A stretch of 12,899 nt of DNA from Promethearchaeota archaeon (lineage in GTDB: Archaea; Asgardarchaeota; Lokiarchaeia; Sigyniarchaeales; SOKP01): assembly GCA_048940445.1 (NCBI GenBank), contig JBHLON010000064.1, positions 1 to 12,899 on the forward strand. Reading direction: 5' to 3'. Position numbers and translations under genes: made by a program. The stretch's first letter is position 1. Every line of letters begins with the position of its first letter. Positions 2,256 to 12,568 of this stretch are shown here, in pieces. Below the pieces are notes generated by a model that searched no databases, was not told the DNA's origin, and saw only the letters and a program-made list of their open reading frames with translations.

Positions 2256-4289
2256 TTATCTAAATATTTTTTGAATTAAAACACTAAGCTGAGGAATAGT
2301 ATTTAGTTCAGCCATTCTACCTGATTGAAAAAATTCATTCAAGGCGGTCCAAATTATAGGATCACTTTGAACTTCTTTATTAAATTGAGTTAATCTGAAT
2401 TTAGCAATGTAAGTTTGTCCTTTAAATAAATAACATAATGAAAAAGAGCCAAGGGATTGAATATTCAGTATATAATCCCCAAATTTAGCTCGATCAAGAC
2501 CTTTAGAAAAGATCTCATTACTAAAGCTATTAAATGCACTAAGAAACCCACCAATGATTCCATTCTGAAAGGATAATTCTTCTGTAAAGGAATGGGAAAA
2601 GATAGGAAGACCCCCTTCTCCGATTATCAAAAGAAGTATAGGAGTTTCAGGTTTTAATTTTGATTCTTTAAATGTACTTTTTCCTTGCAATCTATCTATA
2701 ACACCTTTAAAAGAGGCTAATTCTATTCGTTCTGACATTGGCGCATCTATACTCTTAAGATTATCCCAAACGTTCAAATGTTCCAGTAATTCATCATGCT
2801 CACTAGAAATTTTAATAGCTAATAAGTTAAGGCCATGTAACTCAGCTATTTGCTGTGCTTGCGTTAAAATTGATTTAGCTTCATCAAAATTCATTTGAAT
2901 TAATGCTAATTTTGCTTGCAATAATTTTGTTTCTGCCATCCATATAAATGAATGTCTACTATTTGCTAACTCAAGAATTTTGTAAATCAGAGGATTTATG
3001 TCATCCATAATTATTTCGATTTTATTCGTCATGTATAATTCCTCAAAGTAGAGATCACACAGATTAACTAGTGATAAAAGATGAAGTTGAGGAATAGTGA
3101 TATCATCTTCTATGATCTTTTTTAATAATATCTCTGCTTCTGTACGATTACGGATTCGAATACTTTTTTTCAATACCAATGCTTTTGCAATTAAATAGGC
3201 TTGAGAAATTATCCTATTTTCAGTCTGACCAGCTATTTCCTCTAACTCAGCCAAATAATTTTCAGCTTCCTTATGAGAATTCTCATCGAGATTGATTAAG
3301 ATCAAATAAAAGAGAGCTCCATGCATTCCATAAAATGAATTTGCTTCTTTAGCAAGAGAATAACTAAGTTTAAAATGTTTTATAGACTGAGAATAATCAC
3401 CTTTCATTCTGTATGTAGCTCCAATTCCTAATGTAATATAGATTATATCATCAGTACAATTTACTTTTTTTGCTAATACAATTGTACGCTTATAATACCT
3501 CAAAGCCCTGTTTAACTGGCCTCTTTCTCTATAAATAGCTGCTAAAATCTGTGATGAGTCTAGTTTGGTATGAACACTTATGCTGTTAATAGCTAAGCTC
3601 TGTTTACAAAACTTTAAGGCTTCTCCAAAATCTCCTTTCCCATAATAAATTGCTCCAATTAATGAAAGTGATGTCGCAGTCCCAATCGCATTTCCAAGTT
3701 CCTTTTGAATCTTTAAAGTCTTAATGGCATATTCTAAAGCCAAATCAATTTTTTCACTATAGAAGTATACATTACTGATTATCCAATATATACGTGAAAG
3801 ATCTAAGGGGTTGTGGAATTCCTCGCTTAACTCCATCCACTTTAGAGCTAATTCTAATGCATTATTATGTTCATCTTTAAAGAAATAAATAATTGATTTT
3901 ATTAGCAATAAATCAGCTTCTTGCTGAGAAAAATTTAAGGATGATTCCCTAATATTGGAATTAATTATTTTTTCAATTTCTATAATAATGTTGCTAGCTT
4001 CCTCTAATTTCCTTAGTAATACAACATGTGCTTGAAGAATAAGAGCATCAATAGAATCGGGAATCTGTTCTAATTTTTGACTCAATTCATAAGCTCTTTC
4101 ACCCATTTGTACAGCTTCATTGTATTGTTCACAATAAATGTGAATTCTACCCTTTAAAATCATTAAAGAAAGTTTGTTTTTGGAACTTAATGTTTTATTT
4201 TTCTCAAAATCTATAATTGTATTACTGGCTTCCTTAAATTTACCGTTATACATTAATTCTTCTGCGTGTATAATTTCTTTTGGCTTCAT
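2256..4289 (-). CDS. TPR-repeat protein with C-terminal longin-like alpha/beta domain (paralog A)
   Basis: Multiple TPRs (e.g. ATSLSLIGAIYYGKGDFGEALKFCKQSLAI; LGIGATYRMKGDYSQSIKHFKLSYSL). C-terminal domain PILLLIIGEGGLPIFSHSF...IIGGFLSAFNSFSNEIFSKGLDRAKFGDY...LCYLFKG has the longin beta-beta-alpha-beta-beta-beta-alpha pattern. The track start at 4307 is TTG; the ATG at 4289 is preferred. Confidence 0.85.
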   Translation of the reverse strand: MKPKEIIHAEELMYNGKFKEASNTIIDFEKNKTLSSKNKLSLMILKGRIHIYCEQYNEAVQMGERAYELSQKLEQIPDSIDALILQAHVVLLRKLEEASNIIIEIEKIINSNIRESSLNFSQQEADLLLIKSIIYFFKDEHNNALELALKWMELSEEFHNPLDLSRIYWIISNVYFYSEKIDLALEYAIKTLKIQKELGNAIGTATSLSLIGAIYYGKGDFGEALKFCKQSLAINSISVHTKLDSSQILAAIYRERGQLNRALRYYKRTIVLAKKVNCTDDIIYITLGIGATYRMKGDYSQSIKHFKLSYSLAKEANSFYGMHGALFYLILINLDENSHKEAENYLAELEEIAGQTENRIISQAYLIAKALVLKKSIRIRNRTEAEILLKKIIEDDITIPQLHLLSLVNLCDLYFEELYMTNKIEIIMDDINPLIYKILELANSRHSFIWMAETKLLQAKLALIQMNFDEAKSILTQAQQIAELHGLNLLAIKISSEHDELLEHLNVWDNLKSIDAPMSERIELASFKGVIDRLQGKSTFKESKLKPETPILLLIIGEGGLPIFSHSFTEELSFQNGIIGGFLSAFNSFSNEIFSKGLDRAKFGDYILNIQSLGSFSLCYLFKGQTYIAKFRLTQFNKEVQSDPIIWTALNEFFQSGRMAELNTIPQLSVLIQKIFR

Positions 4290-4324
4290 ATTCTTCCGAG
4301 ACTTCAATGAAGTTATATTGTATA

Positions 4325-6559
4325 TTAAAAATCAATTATTGTTACTGGATCATTTAATATATCTTTAAATATATTAAACGAATTAATTACTTTTGTTGAT
4401 GGAATTGTATCAAATTCTTTCTTAAATTTGCAATATTCTTTAGCTGATAAGGGATATGGAAATTTACACTTGATACAAGTCTCCTTTTCTATACATTCAA
4501 CACACTTTCTTTCCTCTGCTACTTTTTTTGACATGTGTTTGAGATTTTGTATAATTTCTGACATACGTATTCCTATTTCTCCAATTGGGGCAGAATGCCA
4601 ACAAATTCGAATAGAATTATCATTACTTATAATGGCTGTTTCTAAAGTCTGACAATTTGCTACATTATTAGTCCATCTACAGAGATTCTGAAAATAGGGT
4701 AATGGATTACTTCCTAAAAGGTAATTAAACTTATTATCAGTTTTTGTTACTTCAAATAAGAGATGGTAGAGAGCTTTGGTATCAGATTTAGAGTGCTCTC
4801 TACAAATTAAGTTCATCAAATCATAATTTCCTATTCTAGTATTTCGCATAGCTAAACTTGTATCTCTAAATCTTATTTTCAAACCAATATTTTCGCCTAA
4901 AAGAGACATTCTCCCTGATTTTAAGACTGTATCTCCATCTATATTTTGTTGATAATAACAATCATAGTATAAGGTTGGTATTAATTTATTATAAAGCATC
5001 GCAAGGTTTTTATCATGGAGTTTTACATACTTTCTCCTATTGGAATAAATTTGGATGATTGTTCCATTTATCATAAGGTTTTTTTGTATCCAGTTTACCA
5101 AAGGGTCTTTTATAACATCAGAATTAATTATCACATTACTAAAGTAAGATTTCTGATTCGTGCGTTTAGGAATTAATGATAAAACCTTTAAATTATTAAA
5201 ATCAATTGTCTTACTATCTCTTTCTATTGTAGATTTAGGGGCTATTTTAATTTTATAGATATCAAATGGAAAATTATTTCTTGTCATTATTTTATTTTTT
5301 TTTCCAATTGGTTTCACTTTATAACCATATTCTTTATAATTATGATAAATTGGAGTTCCTGCAAAGATACGAAAAAAGTTATGTTGGTAATAACTAATAT
5401 CTAATTGATTAATTAGGTCTATCGTTTTTTGAGCATCTTGAATAGTTTCTCCTGGCAAACCAAGCATTATACTTACAAAAATAGAGTTTATACCAATTTT
5501 TTTAGCGTAAGAAGTTATATGTCGCAATTTATCAGTAAACTCTTTTTCTTTATCGAAATTTTTTGACTCAAAATTTGGATTATGGACTTTTCCAATTGTT
5601 CTTAAGACTCTTGGAACCGCACTTTCTAGAGAAAACCCTAATGAAATAAATCCTGCTTGCTTCATTAAGTCTAATAAATCTTCAGTAATATTATCACATC
5701 TAGTAATACAACTAAGAGGAAGTTTGAATTTGTTCTCAATAATTCGTTCGCAAATTCTTTTTGCCCTTGAAGGCACTATAGTAAAACCATCATCTTGAAT
5801 TGAAATGGGTCCTTTATGTAGTTTATATTCATCAAGAAAAGCCAATTCTTCAATAACTCTTTCTATTGAATGAAAAAAGACATTTCTTTTACTCAAAACG
5901 GCACAATTGCAATAAATACAATTTTGGTTGCAACCTCTAGCTGTTATTACGCCCGTAGGATAAGCTTCAGATGGAGGTATAACTCTAGAAAGATAAGGGG
6001 AAGGGTATTTATCTAAATAATTCTTAATTGATCTTTTTGAAAGCAAAATATTGCTATCTGGAGTGTTGATAATTCTATTATATTTCCTAAACGTGATGCC
6101 TTTAATATTATTTAGGTCAGTTTTATTTAAATTATACTCATTTTCCCGTAAAGCAGATAATAACTCAAGAGTAGTTTCTTCTCCTTCTCCTCTAACACAG
6201 ATATCAATACTGATGTTACTCTTCAATATCTCTTGGGATTGTACGGTAGGTGAAGGTCCGCCAAAAACAGTAATAGTATTTGAATTGTAGGTTTTTAATC
6301 CCTTGCATATAAGAACACTCTGCATATAATTTGTTTCATAAACGGTGAATCCTACGATTTTGGGGTTAAATTCCATAATCCTTTTAACACATTCTTTTAT
6401 ATTGTAAGATTCGTTTGAGATAAATTGTTTTGCATTAAATCCTTTTTTTTTTAAATAAGCAATGATATATCCTGATCCTAAATTTGGTTTAAAATTCGAA
6501 ATATGGAGTGATCCACCAGAGGGAAAAACCATTAAAATGTCTGTAAAATCTTTATTCAT
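4325..6559 (-). CDS. Cobalamin-binding radical SAM enzyme with C-terminal SPASM-like Fe-S domain
   Basis: N-terminal B12-binding Rossmann domain (PNLGSGYIIAYL, PKIVGFTVY, VFGGPSPT, DICVRGEGEET). Radical SAM motif TARGCNQNCIYC at 5909-5932 plus IQDDGF, GFSLESAVPRVL and MLGLPGET. C-terminal Cys array C-x8-C-x16-C...CxxC-x5-CxxC-x11-C at 4430-4681. Confidence 0.92.
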   Translation of the reverse strand: MNKDFTDILMVFPSGGSLHISNFKPNLGSGYIIAYLKKKGFNAKQFISNESYNIKECVKRIMEFNPKIVGFTVYETNYMQSVLICKGLKTYNSNTITVFGGPSPTVQSQEILKSNISIDICVRGEGEETTLELLSALRENEYNLNKTDLNNIKGITFRKYNRIINTPDSNILLSKRSIKNYLDKYPSPYLSRVIPPSEAYPTGVITARGCNQNCIYCNCAVLSKRNVFFHSIERVIEELAFLDEYKLHKGPISIQDDGFTIVPSRAKRICERIIENKFKLPLSCITRCDNITEDLLDLMKQAGFISLGFSLESAVPRVLRTIGKVHNPNFESKNFDKEKEFTDKLRHITSYAKKIGINSIFVSIMLGLPGETIQDAQKTIDLINQLDISYYQHNFFRIFAGTPIYHNYKEYGYKVKPIGKKNKIMTRNNFPFDIYKIKIAPKSTIERDSKTIDFNNLKVLSLIPKRTNQKSYFSNVIINSDVIKDPLVNWIQKNLMINGTIIQIYSNRRKYVKLHDKNLAMLYNKLIPTLYYDCYYQQNIDGDTVLKSGRMSLLGENIGLKIRFRDTSLAMRNTRIGNYDLMNLICREHSKSDTKALYHLLFEVTKTDNKFNYLLGSNPLPYFQNLCRWTNNVANCQTLETAIISNDNSIRICWHSAPIGEIGIRMSEIIQNLKHMSKKVAEERKCVECIEKETCIKCKFPYPLSAKEYCKFKKEFDTIPSTKVINSFNIFKDILNDPVTIIDF

Positions 6560-6624
6560 GAAAAAACAACTTAGATTTATTCTAAATTATCTGCGTAAAA
6601 TATCAATGATGCTTTTTCTTATTA

Positions 6625-6643
6625 AAAATTAAAAAAATAAAAT
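6625..6643 (-). terminator. Putative archaeal oligo-T terminator after the 84-aa ORF
   Basis: Minus strand reads TTTTATTTTTTTAATTTTT a few nt after the TAA stop. The AT-rich background lowers specificity. Confidence 0.45.
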
Positions 6644-6648
6644 TATCT

Positions 6649-6903
6649 TTAGATATTCAAATCAGGTGGCGAAGGGATAAAGACACCAAACTCTGCTACT
6701 CTAAATATATCTTCAATATCACCAATATCTGCTTCAGTTACTTTAGGTTTAATAACATTATACCAAAGTCGAGTTCTTAATTGAGACCTTGATTCTTTAT
6801 TATCTATCCCTTGTTGGACAGTATTAATAATTTCTTGAGCAAGATCAGATCCAAACCTCATTTCGATGAGATCTTTCAATTTTGCCGTATTAAGATCTAC
6901 CAT
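6649..6903 (-). CDS. Small acidic hypothetical protein (84 aa); candidate precursor/substrate of the downstream radical SAM enzyme
   Basis: ATG start with SD TGAGGT 7 nt upstream, TAA stop followed by a T-tract, and it fills the intergenic space. Helical-looking N-terminus and a hydrophobic/Pro-rich tail (VAEFGVFIPSPPDLNI). The function is inferred from position only. Confidence 0.8.
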   Translation of the reverse strand: MVDLNTAKLKDLIEMRFGSDLAQEIINTVQQGIDNKESRSQLRTRLWYNVIKPKVTEADIGDIEDIFRVAEFGVFIPSPPDLNI

Positions 6904-6910
6904 AATTTTT

Positions 6911-6916
6911 ACCTCA
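6911..6916 (-). promoter_or_regulatory. Shine-Dalgarno site of the 84-aa ORF
   Basis: Minus strand: aatatGAGGTaaaaattATG. Confidence 0.7.
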
Positions 6917-6942
6917 TATTATTTTGGATTTCGATAATAGAA

Positions 6943-6978
6943 TCAACATTTTTGTTGAAAATTTTTAAATTTTAAAAA
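6943..6978 (-). promoter_or_regulatory. Putative TATA-like element with adjacent palindromic operator upstream of the 84-aa ORF
   Basis: Perfect inverted repeat TCAACA-N4-TGTTGA (6943-6958) next to an A/T-only palindrome TTTTTAAA-T-TTTAAAAA (6962-6978) that contains TTTAAA boxes. Confidence 0.35.
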
Positions 6979-7022
6979 GATCCATTTTCATTTAAACATT
7001 ATTAGTAAATAAGTTAAAAGAT

Positions 7023-7032
7023 AAAAAAAAAA
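7023..7032 (-). terminator. Putative oligo-T terminator after the 116-118-aa ORF
   Basis: T10 on the minus strand, 3 nt after the TAA stop. Confidence 0.5.
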
Positions 7033-7035
7033 GTT

Positions 7036-7386
7036 TTAGATCATTCCATAATTGCGATAATTTATATTTCTTCTAACTTCTTTAGCTGGAATCATTTCTT
7101 GAAGGTATTTAGGATTCAATTCTGCTTTCTTTATAATCTGTTCTAATTCCCGACTTATTTTTGCTAGTTTTTGTATCTCTTTTTGTTCTTTCTTTGGTGC
7201 TTCTAGAATTGATGGTAATGACTTTTGTAAAATTACTTTTTGAATTTCAACTAATCCCATATCATCGGGTAATTGTTCTAGCATCGCAATTAATTCTTCC
7301 TTATATACAACCATCTTTTGTTTCAACTCCATTTTTGATTTTTCTTTTATATTTTTTTTGGACTCATTTGAAGATTTTTTTTCCAT
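7036..7386 (-). CDS. Hypothetical K/E-rich helical protein (116 aa)
   Basis: Open frame co-oriented with its neighbours, with a K/E-rich composition typical of this genome, a TATA-like TAAATATA about 27-35 nt upstream and a T10 tract downstream. The track start at 7392 is TTG; ATG at 7386. No family recognised. Confidence 0.72.
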   Translation of the reverse strand: MEKKSSNESKKNIKEKSKMELKQKMVVYKEELIAMLEQLPDDMGLVEIQKVILQKSLPSILEAPKKEQKEIQKLAKISRELEQIIKKAELNPKYLQEMIPAKEVRRNINYRNYGMI

Positions 7387-7519
7387 CTTCAATATTCAAT
7401 ATAGTTACGAGTGTATATTTAGGTTCGTAGATAAGACTATGATTGGACTCTTGTAATTTTATTGGAGGGAATTTGGCCCATTACATATCAAATAACATAA
7501 AAAGTTAAGAATGGATAAA

Positions 7520-8086
7520 TTAAAGATTCTCGATTTTATATTCTTCTGATAATAATTTATATTTTTGATACAATAAGTTAATTATCACATTAAAAGCATT
7601 AATTACGCCTTGACCTGTTTTAGCACTAGTATAATAAAATCCTAAAAATTCATAATCCTTCATTAATTTTTGAATAGCTGAATCATCTATGGTATTTAGA
7701 TCGATCAAATCGATTTTATTGGCAAAAATAACAGTTGGAATATTACTACAATACTGTTTCAAATCATTATACCAACTTAAAATATGATTAAAACTATTTT
7801 CACCTAGTTTTGTCTTTTCTACACTATATACAATTATTGAAGCATTGCTATTTTTGAAAAATGATGGTTTTAAAAAACTAAAATCATCTTGACCAGCTAT
7901 ATCCCACAATAGCAATCGAACATTTACATTTTCAATTTGTTTATTGTAAACAGAAAATTGAGCACCAATAGTTTTTATATACTCTTTGTTAAACGAACTT
8001 TCTGTAAATCTCTTGATTAGAGAAGTTTTTCCTACTCCTCCATCACCTACAACAGTAATTTTAAAAACAAGCCTTATTTCATCCAT
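7520..8086 (-). CDS. Rab/Ras-like small GTPase (Asgard-type eukaryotic signature protein)
   Basis: G1 GDGGVGKTS, G2 YIKTIG, G3 WDIAGQ, G4 NKID, G5 TSAK. Diverged RabF-like segments IGAQF, RLLLW, FFKNS and IVYSVE. No C-terminal Cys prenylation motif. Confidence 0.95.
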   Translation of the reverse strand: MDEIRLVFKITVVGDGGVGKTSLIKRFTESSFNKEYIKTIGAQFSVYNKQIENVNVRLLLWDIAGQDDFSFLKPSFFKNSNASIIVYSVEKTKLGENSFNHILSWYNDLKQYCSNIPTVIFANKIDLIDLNTIDDSAIQKLMKDYEFLGFYYTSAKTGQGVINAFNVIINLLYQKYKLLSEEYKIENL

Positions 8087-8249
8087 TTTTTTATACTATT
8101 GAAAAAATTGTATTAACTAAAAATACACTTTTAGGGTTTTAAAACTTGCCCTCTTCCCATAAAAGTAAATTATCTAAAATTAATAGTCCAATGTTGGTTC
8201 ATTCCATAAAGTATTAATAGATAAATATCTACTATCTAATTAGAAAATA

Positions 8250-10724
8250 ATGCTAAACATAAATTATCCACCTAGTGAAATTTTAAGACCAATTGTTGGT
8301 AAAACTAATTTTGAATTAACTATACTTTGGATGCTTAAAAATAATAAATCTTGTACATGGTCTAGCTTGAAGAAAGTAGTTAAACATTCAACATTATCAT
8401 TATACCTAAAAAGATTAAAAGAACAAGGTTATATTATAAGAGTTGAATTCAATAAATATCAAATCACTCCAAAAGGAACATTACGGTTTAATGAAATATC
8501 TAAAGTTAGGAAAAAAGAAAGAATTCTAAATTATCCACCAAAAGCAATCCTAAAAGCAAGAAATTATGAACATTGGATTCTTTGGATGGTTTATAATAAT
8601 AGTTATTGTAAATGGGTCGATTTTACTAGTGATGGTTCTTCAGTAAAGATTAGCCAGTCATCTTTATCAAAAGCCTTAAATGATTTGAGAGAACATAATT
8701 TGGTAGAAAAAACAGAAAATCAATACAGAATCACAAAATTTGGTAAAGCACAATATTCTAAAATACTTCAGTTGTATGACTTAGATAAACAATCTATTCT
8801 TCGAGAAGAAAGTAAAAGGATTGAAGAACTTACAACCCAAACACTTCAATTCTTTAAAAAGTTTGAGATTTTGGATAATAATATTAGATACCGATTTCTT
8901 TATAATGTCCTAAGATTACCATTTGAAACATTTCAACATAATTTCGATAATAGAGAAGATTTCTATAAAATTCTGTTATTCCTCGCAATAAATCATCCAT
9001 CTCATTACCCCGAGTATATTACTTCAGAAGAATTTTGTAGAAAGTTTAACGTAGAAAGATTAATCCTAGATTTTCATATTCTTCAGATAGTCGATAAAAA
9101 CATATATCCCATCAAATTCTTTAAATTAAAAGTAGACAGTGATAAAATTTACTATTTCCAAGCCGATGAAAAAGTAGAACAAATGCTTAACGCTGTAATT
9201 GAAGAACAAATTTCAAAGTTTACTTACTTAAACAAACTTTTCGAAAAAATACCAAATGAATCATTTAAAATTACTATGGAATCTGCTCTTACAGCAATTT
9301 TAGATGAGACTTGCGATACTATATTTAATGAAGGTTTTAGAAATGCACTAAGCCAATTGTTACCAGGATATATTAAAGATTTAGCCTATAAAATCGAAAG
9401 AGAGAAAAAGTTAATAGATACTTATGATAAACTCGAATGTTTAATCTGGCAAGAAGTTCAGATGTATGAAAAAGCAGAAGTTCAAGCAGATGTAGAAAAA
9501 GTTTATTTTATCAATCCGGAGTTTTTAGAACTTTTAAATCCTCTTTATAGAAGTAACATTGAGGCGATAGTAAAAAAAGTACAGCCTTTTATGGAGAATA
9601 AAGCTTATCTTAAGGTATTAGAGATTTTAGATAAACAAATTGAGAAGGAGCAAAAAAGTCACGAGCTTATAATTTTTAAAGCAATAGTGCTATGTTATTT
9701 AAACCGAAATATTGATGCTATAAATCTAATAGAAAAGGAGATTGTTTTATCCCGACTTAAACAAGAAGATACTTATATTTCGGTAATGTTCATCAAAGTA
9801 ATTAATCATCTAGTTTTGGGAAATTTTGAAAACGCTTCACAACTTTGCAGTAAGTTAAGTATAAAATACCCAAATTCGCCTTTATCCTATGTAGTAAGAG
9901 GTATTGTATATGGTTATAATTCAATTTATCACTATAAGTTAGAAATTGATGAAAGTGAGAACGGATTAGCTGATATTTCTGAATATTTATCATATGAGTC
10001 ATTTAATTATAATAAATCGATATTATACCAATTTAAAAGTCTTATTTTATTAGAATTGAAAGAATTTGAGGAGGCACTTAGAGCAATCGACAAAGCAATT
10101 GATTTAAGTCCTAATATTCTGCATTTCTATAACTCTAAGGTCAAAATCTTCCTTTATTTTAACAAGTTTGATGAGGTATTGAAATTTCTTGATAGTTTTA
10201 TTGTATTATTCCCTGAAAGTGAAATAGAAATCAAGTTGAAAAAAGCCTATGTATTTAAAAAAATGCGTGAGGTTGAATCAGGACTAAAAATTATTGAAGA
10301 ACTAGTTCAAAATTATCCAGATAATAATGAATTGTTAAACTATAGAGCAACTTGGTTACTATATCTAAATCAAAAAGAACAAGCAGTAGAAATGATTAAG
10401 AAATTAATAGATCTCGAACCAAAAAAAAGCTTATTTCATGACACTTACGGAGAAATCTTAATGACGTTTCAAGAGTATAATGAAGCTATTATAGCATTTC
10501 AGAAAGCAATAGAATTAAAACCAGATATATGGTATAAGTTTCAAACTTATATAAAGTTAGGAATTTGTTTCAAGGAGCTTAAAAACTATGATGAAGCATT
10601 AGAAAAACTCCAAATTGGAAAAGAACTCACAAATAAATGTTACTGTAATCAAGATATTAAAGACAAGTGGCTTTCAATAGCTAATGTCTTTATTAAAGAG
10701 ATATTAGAGCTTGAGGATGCTTAA
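8250..10724 (+). CDS. Tandem winged-helix domain + TPR protein (putative transcriptional regulator)
   Basis: Two N-terminal wHTH-like repeats (STLSLYLKRLKEQGYI...YQITPKG; SSLSKALNDLREHNLV...YRITKFG), an unassigned central region and C-terminal TPRs (EEALRAIDKAIDLSP; DTYGEILMTFQEYNEAIIAFQKAIELKP; YIKLGICFKELKNYDEALEKL). Confidence 0.85.
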   Translation: MLNINYPPSEILRPIVGKTNFELTILWMLKNNKSCTWSSLKKVVKHSTLSLYLKRLKEQGYIIRVEFNKYQITPKGTLRFNEISKVRKKERILNYPPKAILKARNYEHWILWMVYNNSYCKWVDFTSDGSSVKISQSSLSKALNDLREHNLVEKTENQYRITKFGKAQYSKILQLYDLDKQSILREESKRIEELTTQTLQFFKKFEILDNNIRYRFLYNVLRLPFETFQHNFDNREDFYKILLFLAINHPSHYPEYITSEEFCRKFNVERLILDFHILQIVDKNIYPIKFFKLKVDSDKIYYFQADEKVEQMLNAVIEEQISKFTYLNKLFEKIPNESFKITMESALTAILDETCDTIFNEGFRNALSQLLPGYIKDLAYKIEREKKLIDTYDKLECLIWQEVQMYEKAEVQADVEKVYFINPEFLELLNPLYRSNIEAIVKKVQPFMENKAYLKVLEILDKQIEKEQKSHELIIFKAIVLCYLNRNIDAINLIEKEIVLSRLKQEDTYISVMFIKVINHLVLGNFENASQLCSKLSIKYPNSPLSYVVRGIVYGYNSIYHYKLEIDESENGLADISEYLSYESFNYNKSILYQFKSLILLELKEFEEALRAIDKAIDLSPNILHFYNSKVKIFLYFNKFDEVLKFLDSFIVLFPESEIEIKLKKAYVFKKMREVESGLKIIEELVQNYPDNNELLNYRATWLLYLNQKEQAVEMIKKLIDLEPKKSLFHDTYGEILMTFQEYNEAIIAFQKAIELKPDIWYKFQTYIKLGICFKELKNYDEALEKLQIGKELTNKCYCNQDIKDKWLSIANVFIKEILELEDA
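8262..8770 (+). repeat. Internal tandem duplication of an ~89-aa wHTH module
   Basis: NYPP..IL...N[FY]E..ILWM..NN..C.W starts at residues 5 and 94. The DNA TAAATTATCCACC occurs at both 8260 and 8527 (267-nt period). Confidence 0.8.
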
Positions 10725-10732
10725 ATTCAAGT

Positions 10733-12568
10733 TTAGTCTCTTGATAACCATTCTGTTGTAATAAAACTTTTAGTAATTAGATCCTCTAAGATGGGATGCT
10801 GTGTTAACTGTATGATATTAAACTTTTTCAAAAAATCATTAAATATTTGCCATATAGAGGAAAGATCTTTCATGTGATTTGTAAAATAGCTTAATTTTTG
10901 TTTTGCGAAGTATGATTGTCCTTTAAATAAGTAACAAACTAAGAATTCTTCAATAGAATTCATAAGTATTGTATGATGCCCAAATTTTGCTCGATCTAAA
11001 CCTTCAGAAAAGATCTCCTTGCTAATTGAATCAAACGTAGTCAAGAATCCACTAAAAAGTTCGTTTGAAAAATCCCATTCTTTAGAAAATGCATGAGAAA
11101 ATGCGGGAATTCCCCCATCAGTTATGATTAAAAGTAATAAGGGTTGCTCTTCTGACAATTGTGGAATATCTACGATTCTTTTTTGAATTAATCTTTTCAT
11201 TTGGTCTTCTATCTGGGTTAACTTTAGCCTTTCACTGAGAGGTGAATTAGATTTCTTTAAATCCTCCCATAGATCTAATTTTCGTAATAATTCATCATGT
11301 TCAGTTGAAATTTTCATTGATAATCGATTGAAGCCATATTTTTCAGCTATTCGTTGTGCTTCAGATAATAGTTGTCGAGCATTTTTGGTATCAAAGATTA
11401 ATAATGCTAATCTCGCTTGTAAAAGTTTTGTTTCAGCAATTAAAGGAAACGAACTATTTTTCTCTGCCAAATCTAGCAATCTAGAAAAATAGGGCTGAAT
11501 TTCCTTAAGTATTCCAAGATCATTTGTATTACGGAGATCTATAAGCAATAAGTCGCATAGATTAAGGAGAGCATCAATATGAGCTTCATACAAAACAACT
11601 TCTTGTTCTACTGCGCTTCTTAATATTTTCTCAGACTTAGAAAGATTACTTGCTCTGGGTTTAGCTTTTAAGAGTAGTGCTTTATTGATCTTATAATTTA
11701 ATTTAATAATCTCATACTCATCAACTTGTTTATTTTTAAGATCCCTCATCTTTTCCAAATAAGTTTGTGCCAATTTAAGATCTTCCTTATCTAAAGCAAC
11801 ATGAAAAAGTGAATCAAGAATAATAGGAATTTTTGAGCTTTTTATATCCTTAGAAAGTTTATAACTTTGGTTAATATATTCAAACGCCTCATCTAGTTTT
11901 CCTTGAATTCTGGATATCCATCCTAAATTATTAAGAGCAATAATAGTATTTTGGATATCATTTAAATCCTTTGCAACAGATAATGCTTGACCATAGGATT
12001 TAATGGCAGTCTCTAAGTTACCTTTTATGCCATAATATGTGCCAAAATTCAGGGTAAATTGCATTATTAATCTTTTATCTTCTACTTCTTTTGCTAATAT
12101 TAATCCTTGTTCTAAACATTTCTTTATAAGATCTAATTCTCCTCTCGCAAAATGAATACCGCCTTTTATAAGAAATAAAGGAGCATAACTTTTTTGAATT
12201 TCTTTAGTTGGATTAGGAAAATGAAGTTTAAAAATTTGTTCTGCTTTATCTATAGATTCAAGAGCTTCTTCTAATTTACCAAACCTCCAGAGGACCCAAG
12301 CAATGAGATTTAAAGCTTCTATTGATTTATCATAGCATCTATCTTTTTCACTTTCAAGAAGAACTGATTCTGCTAGTTCTTGGGCATCTTTTAAATTTCC
12401 AATATCTAAAAATAAAGAACTCTTTAATAGCTGGATTTTAAATAAGGTTTCTTTTGAAAATTGATTGTTCCTCTCTAAATTAGTCACAATATTAAGAGAT
12501 TCTTCAAATTTCCCTTCCTTCTTAAGTTTCTCTGCTTTTTTAAACTCTTCTAAATCGTTATTTACCAT
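10733..12568 (-). CDS. TPR-repeat protein with C-terminal longin-like domain (paralog B)
   Basis: TPRs (ALNLIAWVLWRFGKLEEALESIDKA; ALNNLGWISRIQGKLDEAFEYINQSY). Shares blocks with 2256-4289: AETKLLQA[KR]LAL, KIS[ST]EHDELL, EIFS[KE]GLDRAKFG and CYLFKGQ[TS]Y.AK. Confidence 0.87.
   Translation of the reverse strand: MVNNDLEEFKKAEKLKKEGKFEESLNIVTNLERNNQFSKETLFKIQLLKSSLFLDIGNLKDAQELAESVLLESEKDRCYDKSIEALNLIAWVLWRFGKLEEALESIDKAEQIFKLHFPNPTKEIQKSYAPLFLIKGGIHFARGELDLIKKCLEQGLILAKEVEDKRLIMQFTLNFGTYYGIKGNLETAIKSYGQALSVAKDLNDIQNTIIALNNLGWISRIQGKLDEAFEYINQSYKLSKDIKSSKIPIILDSLFHVALDKEDLKLAQTYLEKMRDLKNKQVDEYEIIKLNYKINKALLLKAKPRASNLSKSEKILRSAVEQEVVLYEAHIDALLNLCDLLLIDLRNTNDLGILKEIQPYFSRLLDLAEKNSSFPLIAETKLLQARLALLIFDTKNARQLLSEAQRIAEKYGFNRLSMKISTEHDELLRKLDLWEDLKKSNSPLSERLKLTQIEDQMKRLIQKRIVDIPQLSEEQPLLLLIITDGGIPAFSHAFSKEWDFSNELFSGFLTTFDSISKEIFSEGLDRAKFGHHTILMNSIEEFLVCYLFKGQSYFAKQKLSYFTNHMKDLSSIWQIFNDFLKKFNIIQLTQHPILEDLITKSFITTEWLSRD

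Follow-up and report, generated by a model that had tools for sequence, protein, structure and literature searches.

The DNA examined here is the entire 12.9-kb contig JBHLON010000064.1 (12,899 nucleotides; hereafter the window) of a Promethearchaeota archaeon from the class Lokiarchaeia, whose parent genome assembly spans 3.6 Mb and is 93% complete. Along its minus strand lie, in order, genes for a Ras-family GTPase, a 116-amino acid (aa) open reading frame (ORF), an 84-aa ORF, a 744-aa cobalamin (B12)-dependent radical S-adenosylmethionine (SAM) enzyme, a 683-aa tetratricopeptide repeat (TPR) protein, a ChsH2-like OB-fold protein and a methylmalonyl-CoA mutase subunit. The original prediction, made from the nucleotide sequence alone, proposed that the two small ORFs and the enzyme form a system akin to those that make ribosomally synthesized peptides with post-translational modifications (RiPPs). 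These three ORFs (7036-7386, 6649-6903 and 4325-6559, each on the minus strand) are indeed consecutive and co-oriented. Our comparative analysis delimits a different trio, namely the 84-aa candidate precursor, the enzyme and the TPR protein. This precursor-maturase-TPR cassette is real, RiPP-like and undescribed in the literature that was searched; that search, which left most subscription papers outside its reach, found no description of the cassette or of its families.

The enzyme (4325-6559; this and the following coordinates refer to the minus strand) opens with a cobalamin-binding domain at residues 25-133 (6161-6487; PF02310, 61 bits versus a cut-off of 32, E 1e-16). This is followed by a catalytic radical SAM core at residues 204-383 (5411-5950; PF04055, 65 bits versus a cut-off of 29.5, E 2e-17), whose CxxxCxxC cysteines C210, C214 and C217 are invariant in the homolog alignment. 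An N-terminal B12-binding domain succeeded by a radical SAM barrel with this motif places the protein among the class B radical SAM enzymes. Near the C terminus, eight cysteines (C627, C636, C653, C686, C689, C695, C698 and C710; 4430-4681) that are invariant across 55 homologs follow a radical-SAM-like barrel and define a SPASM-type domain, which would coordinate two auxiliary 4Fe-4S clusters; the pattern sought was seven or eight conserved Cys with CxxC-x5-C-x2/3-C among them. Their spacing resembles the arrangement in anSME (PMC5682303). The B12 and radical SAM domains and the SPASM cysteines are therefore as predicted, whereas the C-terminal half is more than the SPASM-like tail originally proposed, in that it appears to include a second barrel.

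This view of the C-terminal half comes from structure models. An AlphaFold model of the enzyme has a predicted local distance difference test (pLDDT) score of 88 and a predicted template modelling score of 0.91, and the closest solved folds to residues 1-440 include the methylases CysS, TokK, MgmA and TsrM (Foldseek E 1e-18 to 1e-15). When the C-terminal 305 residues were folded alone, the top nine structure matches were all radical SAM enzymes of the SPASM/Twitch type (PqqE, anSME, SuiB, the sactipeptide maturase 5wgg, ChlB, TigE, MoaA, BtrN and SkfB). Each match is middling (Z 5.0-6.5, root-mean-square deviation 4.4-6.0 Å over 152-239 residues) and the list is uniform. The stretch of roughly 160 residues that separates the catalytic barrel from the SPASM cysteines (about residues 470-626; 4682-5152) thus looks like a second, degenerate and partial radical-SAM barrel, and no CxxxCxxC motif occurs in the C-terminal half of any of the 28 lokiarchaeal homologs described below. 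We read the protein as a B12-radical SAM enzyme fused to a catalytically dead radical SAM-SPASM module.

Profile and sequence searches recover little of this second half. TIGR04085 matches four of the 28 members weakly (best E 0.001), the Pfam SPASM profile (PF13186) finds no match, and a sequence search of the C-terminal half against the PDB gave nothing significant. An Atlas search with the enzyme yielded borderline leads only, to SPASM-bearing and 'CXXX repeat peptide maturase' clusters (0.89-0.90). The enzyme reaches the cut-off of no NCBIfam family, the BchE, HpnJ, HpnR, PhpK and QCMT equivalogs giving at best 101 bits versus cut-offs of 360-650. The same genome encodes nine other B12-radical SAM proteins of about 450-540 aa on six further contigs, with three of the genes in tandem on contig C85 and two on contig C119; the five that were checked have no Cys-rich tail.

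The 84-aa candidate precursor (6649-6903) comprises a helical, leader-like region of approximately residues 1-60 and a hydrophobic C-terminal segment. The putative core spans residues 70-84 (6652-6696), with F-G-V-F-I-P at positions 72-77 aligning with W/F-x-T-V-G tails of relatives, and we infer that these 15 residues are the part that is modified. Initially taken for an orphan, the protein in fact belongs to a family found alongside the enzyme in 28 genomes, whose alignment exhibits a helical N-terminal part, a hydrophobic tail and, in many members, W/F-x-T-V-G. Across the family, G, V, T, W and F are over-represented and K, E and D under-represented in the final 10 positions. A family profile from which the 84-aa protein and its closest ortholog had been left out identified this ORF as the sole significant match among the 10,870 ORFs of the genome (E 1e-10). 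No Pfam or NCBIfam model covers the family, an Atlas search with the precursor returned nothing, and none of the 28 precursors matches an NHLP or Nif11 leader. In a comparison of the window with locus L059, the precursor is evolving faster than the enzyme (pN/pS, the nonsynonymous and synonymous values, 0.25/0.43 versus 0.17/0.61). Three genomes carry two tandem copies of the precursor gene, and the tail is retained in the copies.

The leaders of many relatives (nine loci, among them L062, L070 and L078) carry a twin CxxxC helical-hairpin pattern, which probably represents disulfide or metal staples. Assignment to the small Tim chaperones, which have a twin CX3C motif, was rejected: PF02953 matches just four of 28 relatives (best E 0.005), and the 84-aa protein of the window has no cysteine.

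The nearest homologs of the enzyme are in Promethearchaeota (Lokiarchaeia) assemblies. Of 161 Lokiarchaeia genomes, 28 contain its C-terminal half, which turned up nowhere else in a wider search of 400 genomes from Asgard archaea; the 28 represent two genera for the most part and are non-independent samples. The 84-aa family is present in the same 28 genomes. Detection of the precursor is circular for those loci used in training, and two genomes outside the training set (G090 and G148) constitute independent recoveries. The precursor profile returned nothing in 132 genomes that lack the enzyme. One extra match (G115, E 5e-4) looks spurious, as it falls within a 233-aa ORF that has no gene for the enzyme in its vicinity. 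As the original prediction anticipated for homologous enzymes, a related small ORF, here of 62-100 aa, lies 5ˊ of the enzyme gene at every locus (28 of 28), although the TPR gene intervenes in G145. Co-conservation of a small precursor gene with a modifying enzyme, a criterion for RiPP systems, is seen in all 28 genomes and also at bacterial loci. The G145 locus additionally contains a 47-aa fragment (L082:1562-1705) resembling the N terminus of the enzyme between the precursor and TPR genes, with the full enzyme after the TPR gene; we read this fragment as the trace of a local duplication or rearrangement.

The third gene of the cassette encodes the 683-aa TPR protein (2256-4307), which starts 18 nucleotides past the enzyme stop codon. 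A TPR gene is adjacent in 26 of the 28 loci, and the remaining two are cut by contig ends. For 24 of 25 other loci, the neighbouring TPR protein has the one from the window as its best match among the window protein's paralogs. Within the genus of the window, the genomes with a close TPR ortholog are exactly those that bear the enzyme; in the other main genus, weaker TPR relatives (41-45% identity) turn up in five genomes without the enzyme. Four genomes (G069, G067, G100 and G091) lack the precursor, enzyme and TPR genes en bloc at the matching site. There, a gene of the 116-aa family is followed directly by a 496-aa gene, and the same 496-aa gene stands after the precursor, enzyme and TPR genes in filled loci such as L068, L070-L074 and L077. 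The block that comes and goes therefore consists of these three genes. Elsewhere the trio sits among different neighbours. The precursor, enzyme and TPR genes are gained and lost as one unit.

The predicted complex of the enzyme with the 84-aa protein scored 0.68, compared with 0.00 for the best of three controls; in benchmarking, 58 of 80 solved complexes and 2 of 110 mismatched pairs reached this mark. Separate runs had at least 38% of contacts in common, and the pLDDT of the partner was at least 63. Confident contacts join precursor residues 4-51 mainly to enzyme residues 577-582, 611-620 and 723-742, such that the leader is predicted to dock on the dead barrel and SPASM half. A complex prediction had been proposed earlier with the expectation of a tail entering the barrel. 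The pairing passes its controls with the leader docked, whereas entry of the tail is not seen; the tail is placed without confidence in the model and counts neither for nor against. We know of no solved complex with this leader, and RiPP maturase folds are present in the training data.

Homologs extend beyond the archaea. A profile of the C-terminal half retrieved 359 clusters at 50% identity, most of them without a taxon; named members include the cultured Candidatus Lokiarchaeum ossiferum, a Deltaproteobacteria metagenome-assembled genome (MAG) and an Acidobacteriota MAG. Among the close full-length homologs whose DNA was read, five loci of the bacterial type (L155, L156/157, L160, L162 and L167) have an ORF of 69-86 aa located 5ˊ of the enzyme that can be aligned with the archaeal precursor family, and for three of these five the archaeal profile gives E about 1e-4 to 5e-4. 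The 71-aa ORF at L161 does not score on that profile, and at L159 the ORF resembles an NHLP-type leader by eye. Enzyme genes occur in tandem at L156 (three) and L160 (two). The bacterial loci retain the small ORF with no detectable homolog of the cassette TPR protein. A quick tree places 12 Lokiarchaeia sequences in a single clade (support 97) that lies among these homologs and apart from the ordinary B12-radical SAM enzymes of the genome; P0056, which is labelled as lokiarchaeal in the tree and groups with the bacterial-type P0079, is probably not archaeal. Five candidates from Thermoplasmatales and Bacteroidales (L021-L025) were rejected as homologs of the full enzyme, being ordinary tail-less B12-radical SAM enzymes. 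Among more distant homologs, one (L165) lies with PqqD, ScmC-like and ABC genes and another (L163) near a double-glycine NHLP-like ORF. The latter locus (289-903 and 3352-10615) encodes a 204-aa NHLP-like double-glycine precursor, an asparagine-synthetase-like protein and three B12-radical SAM proteins, and it looks like an undescribed proteusin-type locus.

Several characterized systems resemble parts of the cassette. In aminopyruvatide biosynthesis (ApyA/ApyD; NF050148), a B12-radical SAM enzyme is likewise encoded beside its precursor and acts near the precursor C terminus, where ApyD adds one methyl group to the beta carbon of the penultimate Tyr (10.1101/2023.10.30.564719). ApyD is described as containing a RiPP recognition element (RRE) and is partnered by a P450, an MNIO and a methyltransferase (10.1101/2023.10.30.564719). 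However, the cassette enzyme scores 97 bits against the NF050148 cut-off of 750, over its N-terminal half only, and has a dead barrel and SPASM domain instead. Judged by ORF size and sequence, none of the three partners is encoded beside the archaeal loci, and membership in the ApyD family was rejected on both counts.

PoyB/PoyC and the bottromycin methyltransferases are also class B enzymes that act on hydrophobic cores, with several enzymes per precursor, and they methylate beta carbons of Val, Ile, Thr, Phe or Pro (PMC5682303). In contrast to the Cx7Cx2C motif of PoyB/PoyC, all examined members of the cassette family carry the canonical CxxxCxxC, and the 28 precursors have no NHLP/Nif11 match; a proteusin methylase of the PoyB/PoyC type was rejected as well. 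The SPASM maturases (anSME, PqqE, SuiB, CteB, ChlB, TigE and SkfB) share with the C-terminal half the barrel-plus-SPASM fold and, in the case of anSME, the eight cysteines, but the SAM-binding cluster motif is missing from that half, which is joined to the end of a complete B12-radical SAM enzyme. TokK, CysS, TsrM and MgmA/QCMT, the best structural matches to the first 440 residues, are 16-18% identical over approximately 420-490 alignment columns and leave the C-terminal half unaccounted for. On our reading, the cassette may work like ApyA/ApyD or PoyA/PoyC, yet it belongs to neither family by the tests above.

The function we favour, with a probability of roughly 0.6, is that of a three-gene RiPP-like peptide-modification cassette that C-methylates the tail of the small protein. 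The 84-aa protein is very probably the substrate, methylation has overall somewhat better than even odds as the chemistry, and a role of the TPR protein as reader is tentative. In such a system, the helical N-terminal domain of the precursor would serve as a leader on the dead second barrel and SPASM half, which would replace an RRE, and the hydrophobic C-terminal segment would be fed into the N-terminal B12-radical SAM module. Following the class B mechanism, as described for PoyC (PMC5682303) and ApyD (10.1101/2023.10.30.564719) and as in TokK, one SAM would methylate cobalamin. A second SAM would give rise to a 5ˊ-deoxyadenosyl radical, this radical would abstract a hydrogen from an sp3 carbon (in Val, Ile or Thr, or the beta carbon of an aromatic residue) and the methyl group would be transferred. 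The auxiliary clusters probably act as an electron relay or support the fold. Val, Thr, Gly, Trp and Phe abound in the tails, and we read these as residues that enzymes of this kind methylate. TPR domains commonly bind C-terminal peptides, and the TPR protein is therefore a candidate reader that may bind the precursor, or the tail once modified, within the cell. Since the archaeal loci share no conserved protease or exporter gene, the product may stay intracellular with the leader attached.

The alternative that survives best retains the same substrate-enzyme pair with another reaction, such as cross-linking, ring formation, epimerization, or C-terminal cleavage or decarboxylation, in which the SPASM clusters would be an oxidant or electron sink. 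The eight SPASM cysteines are invariant even though simple methylases do not need them, many tails have an aromatic residue near a terminal Gly, and B12-radical SAM enzymes also catalyse C-S, C-P, ring contraction and cyclization reactions (10.1101/2023.10.30.564719). Moreover, the non-methylating relatives AprD4 and OxsB match the enzyme as well by sequence as the methylases do, and other radical chemistry retains some probability for that reason. However, the SPASM domain sits on the barrel without CxxxCxxC rather than on the catalytic one, and no cross-linkable residue pair is conserved across the tails. The two or three tandem paralogs that share one small ORF also recall the multi-methylase clusters for bottromycin and polytheonamide. 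On balance, we consider a different chemistry unlikely.

A second alternative holds that the small protein is a non-substrate partner, for example an accessory subunit, chaperone or inhibitor, and that the target of the enzyme is instead the TPR protein, some other protein or a small molecule. The N-terminal part of the small protein is a folded helical bundle that holds all confident predicted contacts, the missing protease and exporter genes would fit this arrangement, and the TPR gene is linked as tightly as the small ORF. The fast change of the small protein, its compositionally distinct tail, its tandem duplication and the presence of one small ORF for two or three enzymes nevertheless suit a substrate better. 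The bacterial loci, moreover, keep the small ORF without a detectable TPR homolog, and we regard a purely accessory role as rather improbable. That the enzyme modifies a lipid or cofactor (like BchE, HpnJ/HpnR or Grs) with the small ORFs as chance neighbours draws on a weak resemblance of the N-terminal half to the NCBIfam models for BchE and HpnJ (92 bits each) and is apt for the 116-aa ORF, but this very improbable reading is largely refuted by the enzyme-precursor linkage in archaea and bacteria. The scores far under the cut-offs (481 and 578) and a clade separate from the tail-less B12-radical SAM enzymes of the genome also speak against it.

The parity with AprD4 and OxsB is one of several points that count against C-methylation of the precursor tail as the function of the cassette. 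The tail of the precursor family has no invariant residue in the alignment, and that of the window (F-G-V-F-I-P) deviates from the usual W/F-x-T-V-G form. With Z below 8, the second barrel is a middling match by fold, and a Foldseek search with the C-terminal half against the PDB gave no match at E 0.001 (best anSME, E 0.03). Two bacterial-type loci (L158 and L168) have no small ORF directly upstream. Consistent with a caveat already attached to the original prediction, no gene for leader removal or export is conserved across the archaeal loci, although distal genes may exist; C1 and S10 peptidases lie on either side of the Acidobacteriota locus (L167), and an ABC transporter is encoded at the distant locus L165. 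Both the substrate role and the chemistry are inferred.

To our knowledge, no modified peptide from Asgard archaea has been characterized. The cassette adds a new precursor family and an enzyme architecture for which we found no match among solved structures, in which a B12-radical SAM enzyme is fused to a dead radical SAM-SPASM module as a possible leader-binding unit. It can be tested directly, since the trio is present in the cultured Ca. Lokiarchaeum ossiferum (enzyme NEF87_000027, UYP43742.1; precursor homolog of 77 aa) and the pair lends itself to co-expression in E. coli, the approach used for ApyA/ApyD. A bolder and quite unlikely proposal is a new RiPP class in which the dead module is the leader-recognition unit and the modified tail is read by the co-inherited TPR protein for intracellular signalling in a region rich in Rab-like GTPases. 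If true, signalling in a prokaryote closely related to eukaryotes would depend on the modification of a peptide.

Two regulatory features of the original prediction are present around the precursor gene. The Shine-Dalgarno-like sequence GAGGT (6911-6915) is located 7 nucleotides ahead of the precursor start, and a similar motif precedes 7% of the ORFs in the genome. A T-tract 3ˊ of the precursor stop codon and ahead of the enzyme gene (6624-6642) is a candidate leaky archaeal terminator, and a run of at least six T nucleotides follows 21 of 28 precursor genes versus 22% of other genes. Further upstream, the element CGAAATCC (6926-6933) is a candidate transcription start or operator; a CGAAATTC-like motif, in a pattern derived from the same loci, is found ahead of 15 of 28 precursor genes versus 0.8% of genome ORFs. 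A scan for sigma-70 promoters and hairpin terminators, a model unsuited to archaea, remained at chance level. The L. ossiferum locus is covered by RNA-library contigs from two runs of one study, with patchy coverage in a further two; these are not counted as evidence, as contigs cannot show transcription or its level. An inverted repeat (TGTAAC...GTTACA), a candidate operator, lies 35-65 nucleotides 5ˊ of the precursor gene in several loci of genus g12 (L063, L064, L065, L068 and L070), where it is duplicated along with the precursor gene in L070; it does not occur in the window.

The 116-aa ORF (7036-7386) encodes a small conserved protein of the flanking GTPase region and lies outside the cassette. 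Its start is probably at 7332 (98 aa), because a close ortholog in L059 has ATA where the upstream ATG stands. Rather than being an orphan, as first supposed, it belongs to a family present in 74 of 161 genomes, found at sites without precursor, enzyme and TPR genes and absent beside many enzyme loci, and it was rejected as a second substrate. The original prediction that the enzyme modifies one or both small proteins is thus supported for the 84-aa protein, by linkage and the predicted complex, and fails for the 116-aa protein. For the 84-aa protein, none of the refuting conditions attached to that prediction that could be examined went against it. A family of about 66 aa (W-K-x-S-x-x-Y-Y) beside many loci was likewise set aside, since it is widespread (69 of 161) and accompanies the 116-aa family, not the enzyme. 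In about 70 of 161 Lokiarchaeia genomes, the two families occur as a conserved pair of small genes that lack annotation (window 7036-7386; L135-L154), often between a divergent winged helix-turn-helix-TPR gene and Rab-like GTPase genes; in this genome, the 66-aa family is on contig C75. The Ras-family GTPase gene (7520-8086), assigned from a Pfam and ORF reading of the contig, is divergent from a plus-strand gene (8250-10724) for a protein of 824 aa that has two winged-helix regions and carries TPRs at its C terminus, and that is kept at the same site in many genomes. Convergent with the latter, a minus-strand gene (10733-12568) encodes a 611-aa TPR paralog of the cassette TPR protein.

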